A program made the translations under genes and the position numbers. This document shows, one piece after another, positions 7,120-64,000 of a stretch of DNA of 64,000 nucleotides; the first letter of the stretch is position 1, and the number at the start of each line of letters is the position of its first letter. The DNA comes from a virus (lineage: Duplodnaviria; Heunggongvirae; Uroviricota; Caudoviricetes), in IMG/VR virus record IMGVR_UViG_3300045988_134250. The stretch is one strand, 5' to 3'. The notes below the pieces were generated by a model. That model was not told the origin of the DNA. It saw only the letters and a list, made by a program, of their open reading frames with translations, and made no database searches.

Positions 7120-7441
7120 TTTCTATCTCCGGTTCCGCGCTTGCGTAATCACGGATCTTGTTCCTCAGCCATGCCACATCAGGAAGAGTTAACGTGGTCC
7201 CTGCGGGCATTTCTTCCATTTCTGACTCATGGCCCACCAGCACCCGGAATACCCAGCGCAAATCTGCATTGCCATACGCCCGGTAGGCTGCAAGGTCTGA
7301 ACGATATACTTCATCAATCTTTATCGTGTACTGGAAATTATCAGAGTGATACTCCGATACCCGCTTAATCATTTCCTGGTGAAACAGCGCACGAAAAATA
7401 TCGTCTTCAATGTACCTGTCGTCGAGTCTGCTATAGCCCAT
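7112..7441 (-). CDS. Hypothetical protein
   Basis: 109 aa ORF overlapping the downstream gene start by 8 nt. Confidence 0.4.
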   Translation of the reverse strand: MGYSRLDDRYIEDDIFRALFHQEMIKRVSEYHSDNFQYTIKIDEVYRSDLAAYRAYGNADLRWVFRVLVGHESEMEEMPAGTTLTLPDVAWLRNKIRDYASAEPEIENA

Positions 7442-9335: not shown

Positions 9336-9728
9336 TTGAAAAGATTGGCTATTGCTTTACTGGCGTCTTTCCCTTTGATCGCGAGCGCCGGAAATTTACA
9401 AGTTAAGTGCGGTAGGTTTGATATAAAAATCTATCCAGATGCCATATTTCTGAATGGGAATAAGGTTGATAACGCACACCGAAAAACTGAATCTGACGTA
9501 ATGAGCTATGTGTTCCAGGAGTATGCGGAGATGGGGGGAACTTACACGCTGTACTCGCTGGATGTTCCTTCTCGCGGTGATATGACATTATCCCATCAAT
9601 GGCAGAACGCCGATGGCGAAGCTCTGCGCGAGGTTAAAACAGAAAAATGTGGCACTTTCCATTCTTTTAAAGGGAAAGCGCCAAATGTTAAATCTGTGCT
9701 TGAAAAACAGCGCGCAGGTGAGCTTTAA
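9336..9728 (+). CDS. Putative secreted or periplasmic protein
   Basis: 130 aa; signal peptide MKRLAIALLASFPLIASAGN; convergent overlap with the minus-strand gene at 9725. Confidence 0.5.
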   Translation: MKRLAIALLASFPLIASAGNLQVKCGRFDIKIYPDAIFLNGNKVDNAHRKTESDVMSYVFQEYAEMGGTYTLYSLDVPSRGDMTLSHQWQNADGEALREVKTEKCGTFHSFKGKAPNVKSVLEKQRAGEL

Positions 9729-11037: not shown

Positions 11038-11252
11038 CAGTGCACCTCCACGCAGTTCATCGGCAGATTCCAGTAATTGAGGATCTCCATCGCATCAAGA
11101 GTGAAGCGAGCAGCAAAAATGCAGGGTTCTTCGGGAAGGTATGAGCGCGCCTCTGCTTCGGTAGCAGCCATGACGCAGATATACAGGTGTTTTTGGCAGG
11201 AATAGAAACGCCAGATAAATTCAGAATGAGTTGGGGTAGGGATAGTAGCCAT
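11037..11252 (-). CDS. Small protein preceding the Rha gene; paralog of 50748-50972
   Basis: 71 aa; shares SEFIWRFYSCQK / AATEAEARS with the 74 aa ORF upstream of the second Rha gene. Confidence 0.5.
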   Translation of the reverse strand: MATIPTPTHSEFIWRFYSCQKHLYICVMAATEAEARSYLPEEPCIFAARFTLDAMEILNYWNLPMNCVEVH

Positions 11253-56039: not shown

Positions 56040-56333
56040 TCAATTCACATCAATGTCTTGATATGATTCGCCAGTATCGTCTTCGTCGTCAGGATCTCCT
56101 TCCACCTCTGGCCACTCAACCTCCCAGCCAACAGTTTCCAGGCTCCGCAGAACAAACACCCCATCGGCATGAATGGTATTCACGATCCCCATTGCGGAAT
56201 TTGTGTTGATAAAGCGTAAATCTTGCGCAATATTTTCTTCCGAAATATCGCCTTCAAATATACGCAATGTGCCGTCATCAGAGCATTCAACAATCCCTCT
56301 AATCCCAGCGGGACTCACAATGCTATACTTCAT
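56040..56333 (-). CDS. Hypothetical acidic small protein
   Basis: 97 aa; overlaps the stop of the large upstream gene. Confidence 0.4.
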   Translation of the reverse strand: MKYSIVSPAGIRGIVECSDDGTLRIFEGDISEENIAQDLRFINTNSAMGIVNTIHADGVFVLRSLETVGWEVEWPEVEGDPDDEDDTGESYQDIDVN

Positions 56334-59300
56334 TTTGCAACTCCTTCATACATCCCAAGAAAAATTCCAGCACGCCGTCATTGTTTAATACAGAGTTAGT
56401 CGCCTGCTCCGGATCGGCATACATCTGCAAGGCCATAGAAAAAATCTCAGTCGCCCTGCAATTGCTTAATGCAGGTGGCTTTGATATAAATCTGCCGCTG
56501 ACAGAACTTACCGTATTTTCCATATAAATTTTAGACATATATCCATGACTTAGGTCGGTTCGCACCAAATACTCAGCACTGCCACGGCTACCAATATTAT
56601 GATAAGAAACTTTACCGTTAGTTTTTGATTTAATGAAGGCTTTGGCCCTCTCCAATAGATGGGGATTTGAATGTTCTATATGGTGACCTATTTCATGCCA
56701 TAATACACGCTCGTGATCACTATTAGCATCAATTGTTATATTCCCATTTCGACTTGCAAAAGCACGAACATTGTTCTTGTGGTTAATATTTTTTAATGTA
56801 GATAAAGTCCCTCCTGAAATAATATAGGCTTTTTCAATCGTCTCGCGAATACTGTATGCTTTACGGGAGAAAGTTTCATTATCGTGACCACTTAACTGCT
56901 CTGCTTCATCAGAAATAGCAATCCCACGACTCCATTCCTTAGACTGGTCATGTGACACATTTGACGATTCAAGAATCATGTCAAATGCGGCTCTGACTTT
57001 TTTATGTACTACATTTTCAAGCGCATTAGGATAGGCTTTTTGTCCACGTGTTAATGAAGCTATTTCATATAGTTCTGCTTGCAAGTCTTCCGGTATGTCC
57101 AGATTAAAAACAAGCATTTTTTTCAGATCATATCCAATCCCATGATCATTCTGGTGCAAAACCTCAGCAAGGTAGTCAGTGAGTTTTTCCTTATTTGACC
57201 TAACTTTATTGATTTGTTCTATAGTAAAGTCAACACGCTCCTTGATTCCGTAATATGAGGAATGCTCTGCTAATTCCACTATCTCCTTAAGCCTGACAAG
57301 TGTCTCAATATACGCATCAGCGATCTCCTCTGCCGTTAGTTCAGAGCTAACTCCGACACTGGCTGTTATTTTCCTACCAGCCGCCATAATATCGTCGATA
57401 TTATGCAAGCTCTTTTTGAATAACTTCAAAGTATTTTGGATTATGCACACCATCTCTTCTGCGCTTCCAGCTTTATTCATTTCCTTTCTAAATCTTAAAG
57501 CTGTTTTCTCTGCAATAGACGCTGGAGATTTTAAATAGTTACCTAACCAAACAAGACAACCATTGCGCAATTCATCAATACTAAAGTCATCAGGAATATG
57601 TTTTGCTGCATTATGTAAAACACGTATAAATTGTTCAGCGGGCACGCCTTCTTCTGATATGTTGCAAAACGTTTCAATATCACAATCAATATTTCTTTCA
57701 TCTGCGAGCGAAGGAGCTTCATCTCCTTTTTCAATCGCGTCACGCAGTGCGTTAGCATAAAAATTGCTGCGTTGATAAGACAATAACATCGTTGTTAACA
57801 CAGCGTCGCTGTATCCATAACGTTTAGCCCACTCCTTAATCTCATTAACGGTGACATTGCGAATATAAAAACCAAGTTCCAAAAATACATTGCGCTTTAT
57901 TTTTTTTGCGGACTCCTTAATTTTTTCTGACACCTTCACGATTCGGATCAAGTCCTCCACGCTGGTCGCATCAGCAATTAGCTTTGAAATGTATGGTTCG
58001 ACCTCTCCTGAAACCGATTCAAACATGGCGAAATTAAGCCCTTTACCTTCGCCATACTCAGCCTCAATTTCATCAGAAACGGCAGATAAAATGCTACGCA
58101 GATCGACATCTCCGCCGCCGAACATATCGCCTAACGCTTGTTGCTGGTGAATAAGTTCATCGTTAATTTTTTGCGCCAGTTTCTTGAAAGCTGCCCCCAT
58201 TCGCTTAGCGCTTCGGTTGTTGGCAACAATAAACAGAGCAAGCGCTTCTGCTTCCGGAGTGCTATCTCCAAACAATCCACGCTGTGCGATCACCTCTTCT
58301 ACTGCCTGACCGTTATCTTTTGCTTCACGAACAAGGTTAATTGCTTCCTGTAGCGCGGCAATAGCCTGTTTATCCAGACCATTCAATTGCTCTATACCGT
58401 CTACCAGTCCGGTTACCGTGTCATGGTGAACATCACCTGAAAGCGACTGCATTTGCGCAAAATCGCTGGCTGCCGTATTTAATGCGGTAAGAATGTTACG
58501 CATTTCCGGATCTGGCTCTTCCGCCACCAGCCGAACAAGCCTTTCATCCTTGTACGCTTTGGCAAAAATTGCATTCTGGATGCGGTCGATAAGTTGTTTC
58601 GTTGGACGCCCATCGGCAGTAAGCAAACCTGCCGTCGCCGTATCACCTATTTCGCGCAAAAACGCACGAATAAACGCATCATTGGACCGCGCCAGTAGAT
58701 TTCCATCATCTGAAGGATTAAATAGCGCCATGACGCTCTCAGTGAGAAATTGCGCATCCGCATACGCTTTTTCACTTGCAGCCATCTCTTGCAGATCGCT
58801 GATGTTTGAATCGCGGGCAAATTGTGCGCGGTCTACATCTGTGAGTCTTTCTCGCACCAATACGGGCATAGACATTTGTGAAATGTCGTCAGGATTCAGA
58901 CCAAACTCTTTTGCATGATCGATCAGGTACTGGCGATATTCATCCGCCTGCCCTTGCTCATAGGCACGCCAGATACCCATGCTCCTTCCGTTGCCGGATT
59001 CAACAACGTTGTCCGGACCAACTATCGGCGCTCCGTGGCTGCTCATGCCGGAATCCGTTAATTGTGCCGGGCGTAAATTGGAGGCAATACGGTTAACCTG
59101 GAGTTTGCTTGATAGCCGTGTACGGTCACGTGGCTGGAGTTCTTCCGGGAAGGCCGGATTAATCGTACCGTCAAGGTTGTTCGAAATGATCAGACTGCTG
59201 GCATCAACGACCTTAAAAGCCGTCTTTACCTCTGCCCCTTTACTGGTGACTACGTAACTACTGCGCCCCTGGCGTGTTTCTCGCCTCTCTAATGAAGAAA

Positions 59301-59364
59301 CCAGCGCAATAACACTGTTAATGTCTGCTGCTTCGGATAGCGCGGAAGTAACTGACTTGTTCAA
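56323..59364 (-). CDS. DdrB-like large virion-associated protein (by position in a dar-type operon), containing an HExxH motif
   Basis: 1013 aa; WHEIGHHIEH near the C-terminus; 4th gene after the holin pair, as in P1 hdf-darA-ddrA-ddrB. Confidence 0.45.
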   Translation of the reverse strand: MNKSVTSALSEAADINSVIALVSSLERRETRQGRSSYVVTSKGAEVKTAFKVVDASSLIISNNLDGTINPAFPEELQPRDRTRLSSKLQVNRIASNLRPAQLTDSGMSSHGAPIVGPDNVVESGNGRSMGIWRAYEQGQADEYRQYLIDHAKEFGLNPDDISQMSMPVLVRERLTDVDRAQFARDSNISDLQEMAASEKAYADAQFLTESVMALFNPSDDGNLLARSNDAFIRAFLREIGDTATAGLLTADGRPTKQLIDRIQNAIFAKAYKDERLVRLVAEEPDPEMRNILTALNTAASDFAQMQSLSGDVHHDTVTGLVDGIEQLNGLDKQAIAALQEAINLVREAKDNGQAVEEVIAQRGLFGDSTPEAEALALFIVANNRSAKRMGAAFKKLAQKINDELIHQQQALGDMFGGGDVDLRSILSAVSDEIEAEYGEGKGLNFAMFESVSGEVEPYISKLIADATSVEDLIRIVKVSEKIKESAKKIKRNVFLELGFYIRNVTVNEIKEWAKRYGYSDAVLTTMLLSYQRSNFYANALRDAIEKGDEAPSLADERNIDCDIETFCNISEEGVPAEQFIRVLHNAAKHIPDDFSIDELRNGCLVWLGNYLKSPASIAEKTALRFRKEMNKAGSAEEMVCIIQNTLKLFKKSLHNIDDIMAAGRKITASVGVSSELTAEEIADAYIETLVRLKEIVELAEHSSYYGIKERVDFTIEQINKVRSNKEKLTDYLAEVLHQNDHGIGYDLKKMLVFNLDIPEDLQAELYEIASLTRGQKAYPNALENVVHKKVRAAFDMILESSNVSHDQSKEWSRGIAISDEAEQLSGHDNETFSRKAYSIRETIEKAYIISGGTLSTLKNINHKNNVRAFASRNGNITIDANSDHERVLWHEIGHHIEHSNPHLLERAKAFIKSKTNGKVSYHNIGSRGSAEYLVRTDLSHGYMSKIYMENTVSSVSGRFISKPPALSNCRATEIFSMALQMYADPEQATNSVLNNDGVLEFFLGCMKELQNEV

Positions 59365-62364: not shown

Positions 62365-62800
62365 CCCAGTCTCCTTTACGCTTTTCGATCGTAAACTGGC
62401 GCTCTATGCAGTCATTGATAGGGAAAATGCGATAAAGCGGATTCAGTCGGCAGTTACCGTTAGTCAATGTGACTTTCAGATCCCACTTCGTTGGCTCAAG
62501 ATATTTCGTATCGATGAGCAAATACTCTTCTCTCTCACCGCGTTTTGAGGCGTCAACTGGTCGCGTTTTCCCTGAAATAACCACAGATGGATTTTTCAGG
62601 TCTTGCAACCAATATTCGATTTGAGCATTGCTGACCCAGCTTCGCTTAACACGTAGCGAAACAGGAAATGCTATAGCGGATTCTTTCACTACAGCGTCAC
62701 CAATACTCAAAATCTCAACACTCTTGCGACGAAAAATGAAACGGTCAATGATGGCAACAAATGCCATGATAAAAATGAAATAATTTCCAAAGTTACCCAT
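62354..62800 (-). CDS. LydB-like lysis-timing protein (antiholin candidate), one N-terminal TM
   Basis: 148 aa; MGNFGNYFIFIMAFVAIIDRF; immediately downstream of a holin-like gene. Confidence 0.45.
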   Translation of the reverse strand: MGNFGNYFIFIMAFVAIIDRFIFRRKSVEILSIGDAVVKESAIAFPVSLRVKRSWVSNAQIEYWLQDLKNPSVVISGKTRPVDASKRGEREEYLLIDTKYLEPTKWDLKVTLTNGNCRLNPLYRIFPINDCIERQFTIEKRKGDWDVK

Positions 62801-63126
62801 TATTTCTCTCCACCTTTTCCCCCATTCGCTATTACGCTTAAGAGATTCAAGACGTAACTAGCTCTGGACTTCAAGCCCTGTAAAATTTCACTACCGTTGT
62901 TACTGGCAATCAGAACAACGCAGAAAATGATACCTTCAGGCCATTCTTGGCTAACCGCCACCCCATACCCCGCAAGCCCGGCTGTTACCGCAGTAAACAA
63001 TTCACTCGCAAGATTGAGCAGGGACGCAGAAATGCGCCCGTCTCTAACTCCGAGAAGGAATACGCCGGTTCCACTTAGTAGGGATGTTATGACTACTACA
63101 GCCAGATTTTCATAATCTGCAAACAT
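62800..63126 (-). CDS. Holin-like membrane protein (LydA-type)
   Basis: 108 aa with 2-3 hydrophobic segments (LAVVVITSLLSGTGVFLLG; IIFCVVLIASN); GGAGGGG RBS before the ATG. Confidence 0.5.
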   Translation of the reverse strand: MFADYENLAVVVITSLLSGTGVFLLGVRDGRISASLLNLASELFTAVTAGLAGYGVAVSQEWPEGIIFCVVLIASNNGSEILQGLKSRASYVLNLLSVIANGGKGGEK

Positions 63127-63229
63127 ACCCCTCCAGAAATAACATCTAATGCGCCACTAACTTAGTCAGTTTGTTATTTCCTTACAGGACATCTTCTAGG
63201 ATCGTATCCTTAGCATACAAGGGAGACAT

Positions 63230-63265
63230 ATGCTTATTGGATACATTCGCATATCAACAAATGAT
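63230..63265 (+). repeat. Inverted partial copy of the cin 5' end (start codon plus about 11 codons)
   Basis: atgcttattggatacattcgcatatcaacaaatgat resembles, in opposite orientation, the cin start atgctgattggctacatacgtgtgtcaacaaatgac at 63915-63880. Confidence 0.55.
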
Positions 63266-63342
63266 GATGCGCCGCGCGATAAATGCACTCTATCTTGTGC
63301 GATAAATGGCATCCACGCGGCGTTTCATTATTTGAAAAAGAA

Positions 63343-63915
63343 TTACATTTCAGGTTGCGTTATGACAGTCCCAACAGGGTGATAGCGGTAGATCGTTGAC
63401 AGTCCAATATCATAGATAATTGCCAGCCGCTTTCTGTCATACCCTTTCTGGAGCAATCTTGCGATCTGCTCATGCTGCTCCTTCGTCAGTTTCGGGCGAC
63501 GTCCTCCAACTCTTCCTTGTACTCGCGCAGCAGCCAGTCCTGCCAGCGTGCGCTCAACTATCAGTTCACGCTCCATTTCTGCCAGTGCACCCATCATATG
63601 AAAAAAGAACCTTCCCATCGGAGTGCTGGTATCGATTGAATCCGTCAGACTGCGAAAATTGACACCTTTTGCGCGTAACTCTTCTGTGAGAGCAATGAGG
63701 TGTTTCATTCTTCTACCCAACCGATCCAGCTTCCAGACCACCAATGTATCCCCTCTTTTAAGGCACTTTAAAGCGCGTTTCAGGCCTGGTCGTTCCGACT
63801 TGGTTCCGCTCATTTTGTCCTCAAAAATCTGTTCACATCCTGCGCACATTAATGCATTGCGTTGCAAATCTGTGTTTTGGTCATTTGTTGACACACGTAT
63901 GTAGCCAATCAGCAT
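63343..63915 (-). CDS. cin: Serine DNA invertase of the Hin/Gin/Cin/Pin family
   Basis: 190 aa; MLIGYIRVSTNDQNTDLQRNAL...GDTLVVWKLDRLGR...C-terminal HTH GLSTIYRY. Confidence 0.85.
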   Translation of the reverse strand: MLIGYIRVSTNDQNTDLQRNALMCAGCEQIFEDKMSGTKSERPGLKRALKCLKRGDTLVVWKLDRLGRRMKHLIALTEELRAKGVNFRSLTDSIDTSTPMGRFFFHMMGALAEMERELIVERTLAGLAAARVQGRVGGRRPKLTKEQHEQIARLLQKGYDRKRLAIIYDIGLSTIYRYHPVGTVITQPEM

Positions 63916-64000
63916 TAAAAATACTCCCTTTTGAGTGGTTAAAGTACTGAGATAATGTGGGGAGGATTTGAGAGATAAACGTTGGTTTGGGGGAAGGCTC

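Follow-up and report, generated by a model that had tools for sequence, protein, structure and literature searches.

The inverted copy of an invertase gene start in a D6-like phage-plasmid is the stump of its original cin gene, very probably cut at the right end of a BcepMu-like transposable phage

The likeness between the invertible tail-fibre modules of P1-type and Mu-type temperate phages has been known since the 1970s. In phage D6, a relative of P1, the gene order runs darA, hdf, lydB and lydA (all on the minus strand), cin (on the plus strand), cixL overlapping the 3′ end of cin, the invertible C segment and the tail-fibre gene S; in both D6 and P1, cin reads toward the segment that it inverts. 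In phage Mu, by contrast, the tail-fibre gene is followed by the invertible G segment, the invertase gene gin and the right end of the phage, and BcepMu/phiE255-like phages such as PhiKM keep the same order. The P1-family plasmid p15B, reportedly described by Sandmeier, Iida, Arber and colleagues in 1991/1992, is said to carry a truncated 5′ region of cin (psi-cin) beside a substituted min invertase, an event characterized only as a 'substitution'. In the P1 GenBank record, P1 31570–31832 (the cin upstream region plus cin nt 1–173) is given as 89% identical to p15B nt 7147–7408. A further P1-like plasmid, pJIE250-3 (2019), holds a reversed Min-like, cin-related invertase and a modified C segment, which its authors read as a probable loss of function, without analysis of the junction (PMC6906374). 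Here we describe a comparable arrangement at positions 63,230–63,915 of the Caudoviricetes record IMGVR_UViG_3300045988_134250, analysed as a stretch of 64,000 nt (hereafter the window), in which a minus-strand DNA invertase gene lies next to an inverted partial copy of an invertase gene start.

The window is a D6-like (P1-family) phage-plasmid. As in p15B, its Cin-type system has been replaced by one of Pin/Min type, with the cin upstream region and the start of cin kept beside the incoming invertase, and a truncated cin 5′ region next to a new invertase is to that extent a known kind of feature. The window differs from p15B in three respects: its backbone is D6-like rather than of the P1/p15B type (pJIE250-3 likewise has a P1 backbone), its stump measures 35 nt against about 173 nt, and its breakpoint coincides with the terminal base of a BcepMu-like phage. 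The last of these, which names both the donor and the joining mechanism, appears to be new within the literature searched. Our data identify the stump, fix the exact position of the junction, mark 63265 as the terminus of a transposable phage and locate the real crossover site; beyond this, we hold it very probable that the stump is what remains of the original cin after it was cut at the right end of a Mu-like transposable phage, which brought in a new invertase and a new tail-fibre switch.

A repeat search placed the two inverted arms at 63230–63264 (plus strand) and 63881–63915, with 35 nt each, 83% complementarity and a separation of 616 nt. Identity amounts to 29/35, or 29/36 (80.6%) over the 36 nt considered in the initial annotation, which had reported the 5′ end of the invertase gene as mirrored in opposite orientation with about 80% identity; that observation is confirmed. 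At least 29 matches in 36 are expected by chance only 3e-6 times (binomial, all pairs within 62800–64000), and the best value obtained in 100 shuffles of the same segment was 27. Counted in 12-nt blocks, the matches run 10, 8 and 11 and then fall to 2/12 in the fourth block, so that the similarity breaks off after nt 35/36, and the longest perfect run is 11 nt. The plus-strand copy begins with ATG and opens a 50-codon open reading frame (ORF; 63230–63382, MLIGYIRISTND...), and the minus-strand ORF at 63343–63915 starts MLIGYIRVSTND. The plus-strand arm had been placed just beyond the stop of the invertase gene; in fact 78 nt (63265–63342) separate it from that stop at 63343.

The origin of the plus-strand arm emerges from its flank. 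In a BLAST search with 62800–64000, the segment 62800–63264 is 97.4% identical to phage D6 (31152–31618) across the holin gene and the start of a gene annotated 'DNA invertase', and the D6 homology ends at query position 465, which is 63264. The intact cin of D6 (L001 7433–7993, plus strand) directly follows the lydA intergenic region and starts at the base equivalent to 63230. Strand, start position and roughly 100 nt of upstream sequence are thus all as in D6 cin, and the arm itself corresponds to the first 35 nt of that gene (63230–63264, plus strand; codons 1–11 and 2 nt). It matches the psi-cin of plasmid pKOr024_2 at 35/35 positions and D6 cin at 33/35, as against 29/35 for the neighbouring invertase. 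The suggestion that the arm is a remnant of a second invertase gene is therefore supported and can be made precise: judged from these alignments, it is a truncated, non-functional pseudogene stump of the resident D6-type cin (psi-cin), in its native place and orientation behind the lydA–cin intergenic region. The 50-aa ORF that it opens has no match in Pfam, whereas D6 Cin matches Resolvase and HTH_7, and it is left unannotated in the RefSeq copies.

Over the same stretch, P1 cin, Mu gin and e14 pinE match psi-cin at 26–30/35 positions. Since the starts of Din-family genes are alike to this degree, the mirror reflects how far the whole family has conserved the codons of its catalytic N-terminus; the 80% symmetry arises because both arms are the starts of homologous serine-invertase genes, which encode the conserved MLIGY(I/V)RVSTNDQ. 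An identity of 80% that includes the start codon might also have been expected if the arm were a duplicated fragment of the neighbouring invertase's own 5′ end, as the description 'copy of its own 5′ end' implies. We regard this as practically excluded: the identity counts favour D6-type cin (33–35/35 against 29/35), the D6 alignment supplies 100 nt of D6-type upstream sequence and the D6 cin start position, and no comparable fragment flanks the chromosomal copies of the module.

The minus-strand gene itself (63343–63915, 190 aa), whose first 35 nt form the second repeat arm (63881–63915), encodes a serine DNA invertase of the Din family. Its product matches Resolvase (5.7e-50, residues 3–135) and HTH_7 (1.3e-12, residues 138–180), has the N-terminus MLIGYIRVSTNDQ, and shows the features by which the family is recognized, namely a length of about 185–195 aa, a YxRVSTxxQ serine motif and a C-terminal HTH_7. 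The gene had been named cin, yet its protein is 99.5% identical to the copy in a BcepMu-like prophage described below, compared with 75% to PinE, 72.6% to Gin and 71% to the Cin proteins of P1 and D6. The corresponding RefSeq protein, WP_000904922.1, is annotated both on the near-identical plasmid pB2C_96 and on chromosomal prophages. By sequence, then, the gene is a Gin/Pin-like invertase belonging to the Mu-like module and should not be labelled cin. A recombinational (Fis-dependent) enhancer is predicted within it at 63826–63897 (minus strand, invertase nt 19–90) by positional homology only: in the P1 record, the enhancer for inversion by Cin is assigned to cin nt 19–90, a stretch to which the window invertase is identical at 54/72 positions and Mu gin at 55/72. 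We also observed a 19-nt inverted repeat of 84% (63833–63851/63953–63971) around the invertase start codon and its upstream region, which overlaps the crossover site described next by 2 nt and could be due to chance or form part of invertase autoregulation.

With two homologous arms bracketing a recombinase gene, it had been proposed that the 5′ region of the gene itself takes part in inversion. A search for crossover sites instead located a single 26-bp site in the window, GAGAGATAAACG TT GGTTTGGGGGAA, at 63970–63995, where 0 were expected; its central dinucleotide falls at 63982–63983 and it lies 55 nt upstream of the invertase start. The probe TTCCCCCAAACCAACGTTT, allowing up to 3 mismatches, likewise matched the window only at 63977–63995. 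Within the 35-nt arms, neither the imperfect dyad TTNNNNNAAACC-NN-GGTTTNNNNNAA nor an AAACC..GGTTT core was found. If the 35-nt repeat were nonetheless functional, either as a recombinase site or through homologous recombination, it would invert the invertase gene, and the predicted isomer is indeed an intact, in-frame hybrid invertase ORF behind the old cin promoter region; the 5′ part of Din-family invertase genes does, moreover, hold the enhancer. Against this, the predicted isomer found no match among 72,556 plasmids, the best junction-spanning match (91.6% over 80% of the query) coming from plasmids with D6-type cin, and the 16 plasmid records that carry the identical 140-nt junction are all collinear with the window. 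RecA-dependent recombination in E. coli needs roughly 25 nt of perfect identity, well above the 11-nt run shared by the arms, the crossover motif lies at 63970–63995 rather than in the arms, and the stump spans only 17/72 enhancer positions. A functional repeat is thus very improbable. The plus-strand copy belongs to a gene that is conserved and intact in relatives, and no isomers turned up, so that under the conditions set in the initial annotation itself the inversion reading is refuted. We regard the stump as inert, a common type of pseudogene remnant that shows no evident activity and plays no part in recombination. The earlier interpretation of the locus is in sum partly supported, in its remnant but not in its inversion.

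Inversion is better placed on the other side of the invertase gene. The site at 63970–63995 is the invertase-proximal border of an invertible tail-fibre region that runs past the end of the window, so its partner sites, which lie outside the window, were read from the sister plasmid pB2C_96 (L002, NZ_CP035876.1). There, a second site in the same orientation occupies 9610–9635, and an inverted partner, TTCTCCTAAACC-AA-GGTAATTGAGGA, is found at 11213–11238 within the tail-fibre gene S; sites in inverted orientation flank alternative tail-fibre 3′ ends, as is usual for Din-family invertases. The inversion borders of the plasmid are accordingly predicted at 63982/63983 and inside S, and not around the invertase gene. 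Both site sequences are identical to Phi2_3prime and Phi2_5prime of prophage Phi2 in E. coli EC958 (ST131), where PacBio assemblies captured both orientations of a 2067-bp segment (PMC4134206, Table 3). Phi2 differs in that its copy sits in a complete chromosomal prophage in which inversion has been seen, whereas the module in the window is grafted onto the tail-fibre gene of a phage-plasmid and is known here from sequence.

The locus shares with the cin–cix C-segment system of D6 and P1 the context of darA, hdf, lydB, lydA and cin, the start position of cin and the N-terminus of S. The D6 and P1 cin genes, however, read toward the invertible segment, with cixL overlapping the cin 3′ end, while the window invertase reads away from it and has its crossover site upstream, which is the arrangement of Mu gin.

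From 63264/63265 to 64000, the window is 99.5% identical by BLAST to an E. coli chromosomal segment that bears the annotation 'recombinase | tail fiber protein', the sequence from 63265 onward reading TGATGCGCCGCGCGATAAATG... Among 5426 complete E. coli genomes, 647 chromosomal places show homology that begins at 63259–63265. The same terminus, TGATGCGCCGCG..., adjoins seven different flanks: the start of ycaL, ssuB, irp2, malE, a thiamine-pyrophosphate-protein gene, one further chromosomal locus and the plasmid cin stump. A complete copy of the element, 38.2 kb long, splits ssuB in L005 (NZ_OZ038879.1, 5289–43534). It encodes Mor, gp16, Mu Gam, an AAA ATPase, an rve-domain transposase, a Mu-type portal protein, Mu F and a virion morphogenesis protein (Pfam: rve, AAA_22, Mor, Phage_Mu_Gam, Portal_Mu and Phage_Mu_F), followed by a contractile tail, the tail-fibre gene, silent tail-fibre cassettes and, last, the invertase. 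The transposase is 69% identical at the amino-acid level to those of the Burkholderia phages phiE255 and BcepMu and 98.8% to that of Escherichia phage PhiKM. Both insertions checked for target duplications have them, each of 6 bp (TCGAGA in ssuB, CCCTTT in irp2). Because the same end base adjoins many unrelated targets, and complete copies carry transposase genes and duplications, 63265 is the right terminus of a BcepMu-like transposable phage.

Its final 78 nt on this side occupy 63265–63342 (5′-TGATGCGCCGCGCGATAAATGCAC..., read inward), and the 6 bp AAATGA at 63259–63264 are the target DNA adjoining the terminus, with the junction at 63264|63265. Direct CGATAAATG repeats at 63277–63285 and 63300–63308, 23 nt apart, are candidate transposase-binding sites; a related motif, GAGATAAAT, occurs twice at the left end of the prophage, and both ends of the element start with TGAT. 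Only the last ~4 kb of the element is left in the phage-plasmid, with neither transposase nor left end, and the left end is missing from the sister plasmids as well. A lambdoid prophage attR, first suggested by a match next to aroA, was rejected as the source of the junction because Mu-type prophages proved to carry this terminus at many loci. Another inverted repeat of 19 nt (84%; 63258–63276/63316–63334) runs across the join of psi-cin with the phage terminus. The inner part, GCGCCGCG/CGCGGCG, is sequence of the phage end, and its outer part pairs with target DNA, probably fortuitously, because the flanks there differ at other insertion sites.

Besides the order of tail-fibre gene, invertible segment, invertase and right end, the E. 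coli element has in common with Mu termini that begin 5′-TG, a right terminus identical at 17/25 positions and insertion at many chromosomal sites; its complete copies encode a DDE transposase, ATPase, Mor, Gam and Mu-type head genes. The element departs from Mu in having no com/mom between the invertase and the right end, in its duplications (6 bp in the two insertions examined, compared with 5 bp for Mu) and in its early operon, which is inverted relative to Mu, with Mor next to the left end. In the complete copy, this operon (transposase, ATPase, Gam and Mor; L005 5289–15108) reads toward the left end. Separately, about 70 mostly conjugative plasmids of E. coli and Klebsiella (for example NZ_CP019055.1, 183133–183276) were seen to hold a 145-nt fragment of about 90% identity to the prophage left end (query 10–154), and these fragments may be scars of former insertions.

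The terminus recurs as a breakpoint in other D6-like plasmids. In pCUVET16-559.2 and W444 unnamed3, the two plasmids recorded as L014 (NZ_CP150992.1, 937–1005) and L015 (NZ_CP122510.1, 893–961), the junction lies at cin nt 52 (...CACCGCTTTGC|TGATGCGCCGCG). Both also have 17 nt of the cin start duplicated in tandem (ATGCTTATTGGATACAT twice) and have lost nearly all of the invertase gene, so that their tail-fibre switch is probably frozen. A different configuration is found in pKOr024_2 and pNCYU-26-73-5, where at least 307 nt of a decayed cin, disrupted by frameshifts, a stop codon and the loss of 9 nt, precede a 73-nt spacer and then the terminus. Their module is more divergent (invertase 84% identical at the amino-acid level, nine crossover sites) and Min-like. 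The spacer (L004, NZ_CP147095.1, 6727–6799; L016, CP042620.1, ~1429–1501) is roughly 80% identical, by eye, between the two diverged plasmid lineages; it showed no convincing similarity to cin in either orientation and no chromosomal match. We also noted that the nine crossover sites of L004 (7491–12585) accompany six silent tail-fibre cassettes in one orientation, making this a multiple-inversion system of the kind of p15B Min, compared with three sites in the window lineage.

These junctions bear on whether transposition was involved at all. The module could in principle have been swapped in by two ordinary crossovers, one illegitimate and one homologous, with only chance placing the left breakpoint at the prophage end. 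Mosaic exchange is known to concentrate in tail-fibre regions, the right junction of the module lies in a common repeat motif, and the searches turned up no intermediate in which cin holds a complete prophage, all of which would suit such a swap. The left breakpoint, on the other hand, coincides to the base with a terminus that adjoins six unrelated chromosomal loci, and in other plasmid lineages a terminus of this kind forms the breakpoint at two further cin positions. It is very unlikely that random breakpoints would fall three times on the final base of a 38-kb element, and we consider a swap of this sort improbable.

We therefore favour an origin by insertion and subsequent deletion. The ancestor would have been a D6-like P1-family phage-plasmid with the order lydA (minus), cin (plus), cixL, C segment and S (minus). 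In a first step, a BcepMu/phiE255-like phage would have entered cin by transposition, between nt 35 and 36 and with the right end facing lydA, an orientation that would set its tail-fibre gene in the same direction as S. In a second step, recombination between the phage tail-fibre gene and S at their common ATPKAVKAAYDLA motif would have taken out most of the prophage along with what was left of cin and the resident C segment. The outcome would be the order now observed: psi-cin (63230–63264), the prophage right end (63265–63342), the invertase (63343–63915, minus strand), the crossover site (63970–63995), invertible cassettes and a hybrid S.

The two steps differ in their footing. That the join was made by transposition is well supported, because the terminus is exact to the base. 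The deletion by recombination between the two tail-fibre genes we infer from pB2C_96, in which D6 homology resumes at L002 12915 and the hybrid S protein is D6-like over residues 1–203 (95%) and prophage-like thereafter, the switch falling at the ATPKAVKAAYDLA motif common to both parents. As a separate observation, this hybrid S (L002 11397–12937), which lies just past the right end of the window, contains about five near-identical tandem 300-nt (100-aa) fibre-repeat units with the ATPKAVKAAYDLA motif, amplified in comparison with the prophage S. The choice of cin as target may follow from the same scheme: being the only dispensable gene between lydA and S, it would be hit because only insertions between lydA and S could resolve by recombination between the tail-fibre genes without loss of an essential gene.

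Several points weigh against this account. A search of the plasmid collection with the prophage early region found no D6-like plasmid holding a complete prophage, and the reciprocal junction, ...TCTGATCA|AAATGA|CCAAAACACC (left end, AAATGA, then cin from nt 36 on), is absent from the 5426 complete E. coli genomes. With the left end gone, there is no target duplication to compare in the window, and transposase binding to 63265–63342 remains a prediction. Finally, the window junction differs from the nt-52 junction by the absence of exactly 17 nt beside the terminus, and may be a secondary, terminus-adjacent deletion instead of a separate insertion.

That last point amounts to an alternative history in which the window junction would descend from an older, deeper insertion of the nt-52 type by a deletion starting at the phage terminus, for instance as a product of intramolecular transposition. 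It would change only how the junction arose, not what the stump is. The 17 nt missing from the window relative to the junction of L014 and L015 (CCAAAACACCGCTTTGC) adjoin the terminus directly, and the plasmids have similar backbones and right ends of 98.8% identity. Simple slippage, however, would find no useful microhomology, both TGA copies being kept; L014 and L015 carry changes absent from the window, namely the 17-nt tandem duplication and the deleted invertase; and independent insertions 17 nt apart account for the data equally well. We regard a secondary deletion as rather unlikely, with more to be said for it than for a swap without transposition. Whether the nt-35 and nt-52 junctions are separate insertions or are related by a terminus-adjacent deletion, the terminus acts as a special end either way.

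The last intact gene of the D6-like backbone ahead of the junction is a lydA-type holin gene (62800–63126, minus strand, 108 aa), identified from the ORF list and the D6 match; its D6 counterpart is annotated as a holin similar to P1 lydA, and it is also annotated as a holin in pB2C_96. The intact D6-type lydA–cin intergenic region (63127–63229) is collinear with D6 and pKOr024_2 up to the cin start codon and presumably contains divergent promoters. A promoter and terminator scan of 63000–64000 gave one weak promoter-like site, inside lydA, and no terminators, which is no more than in shuffles, and the P1 LPdar and cin promoter regions aligned too divergently with the window intergenic region for P1 promoter annotation to be transferred. 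Farther away, a 1013-aa ORF (56323–59364, minus strand) has an N-terminal ddrB-like ParB domain (Pfam PF18763, 1e-41) like that of D6 orf25 (454 aa). Its D6 homology is limited to the N-terminal part, and a C-terminal extension of about 560 aa with a HEIGHH motif is absent from D6.

The value of the stump lies in its being a dated, base-precise evolutionary scar. It indicates that this widespread group of phage-plasmids in E. coli acquired its host-range switch in one piece from a Mu-like transposable phage, a donor that would be present in roughly 12% of complete E. coli genomes if the 647 chromosomal places fall in nearly as many genomes, and it points to transposition as the joining mechanism. 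More tentatively, P1-family phage-plasmids may repeatedly gain host-range switches from BcepMu-like phages by transposition into cin followed by tail-fibre recombination, the three junctions (nt 35, nt 52, and at least 307 nt plus spacer) then being independent; the Min substitution of p15B, and perhaps the C/G homology of P1 and Mu, could share this route. The scar thus offers a testable route by which unrelated temperate phages of the P1 and Mu types share invertible tail-fibre modules.

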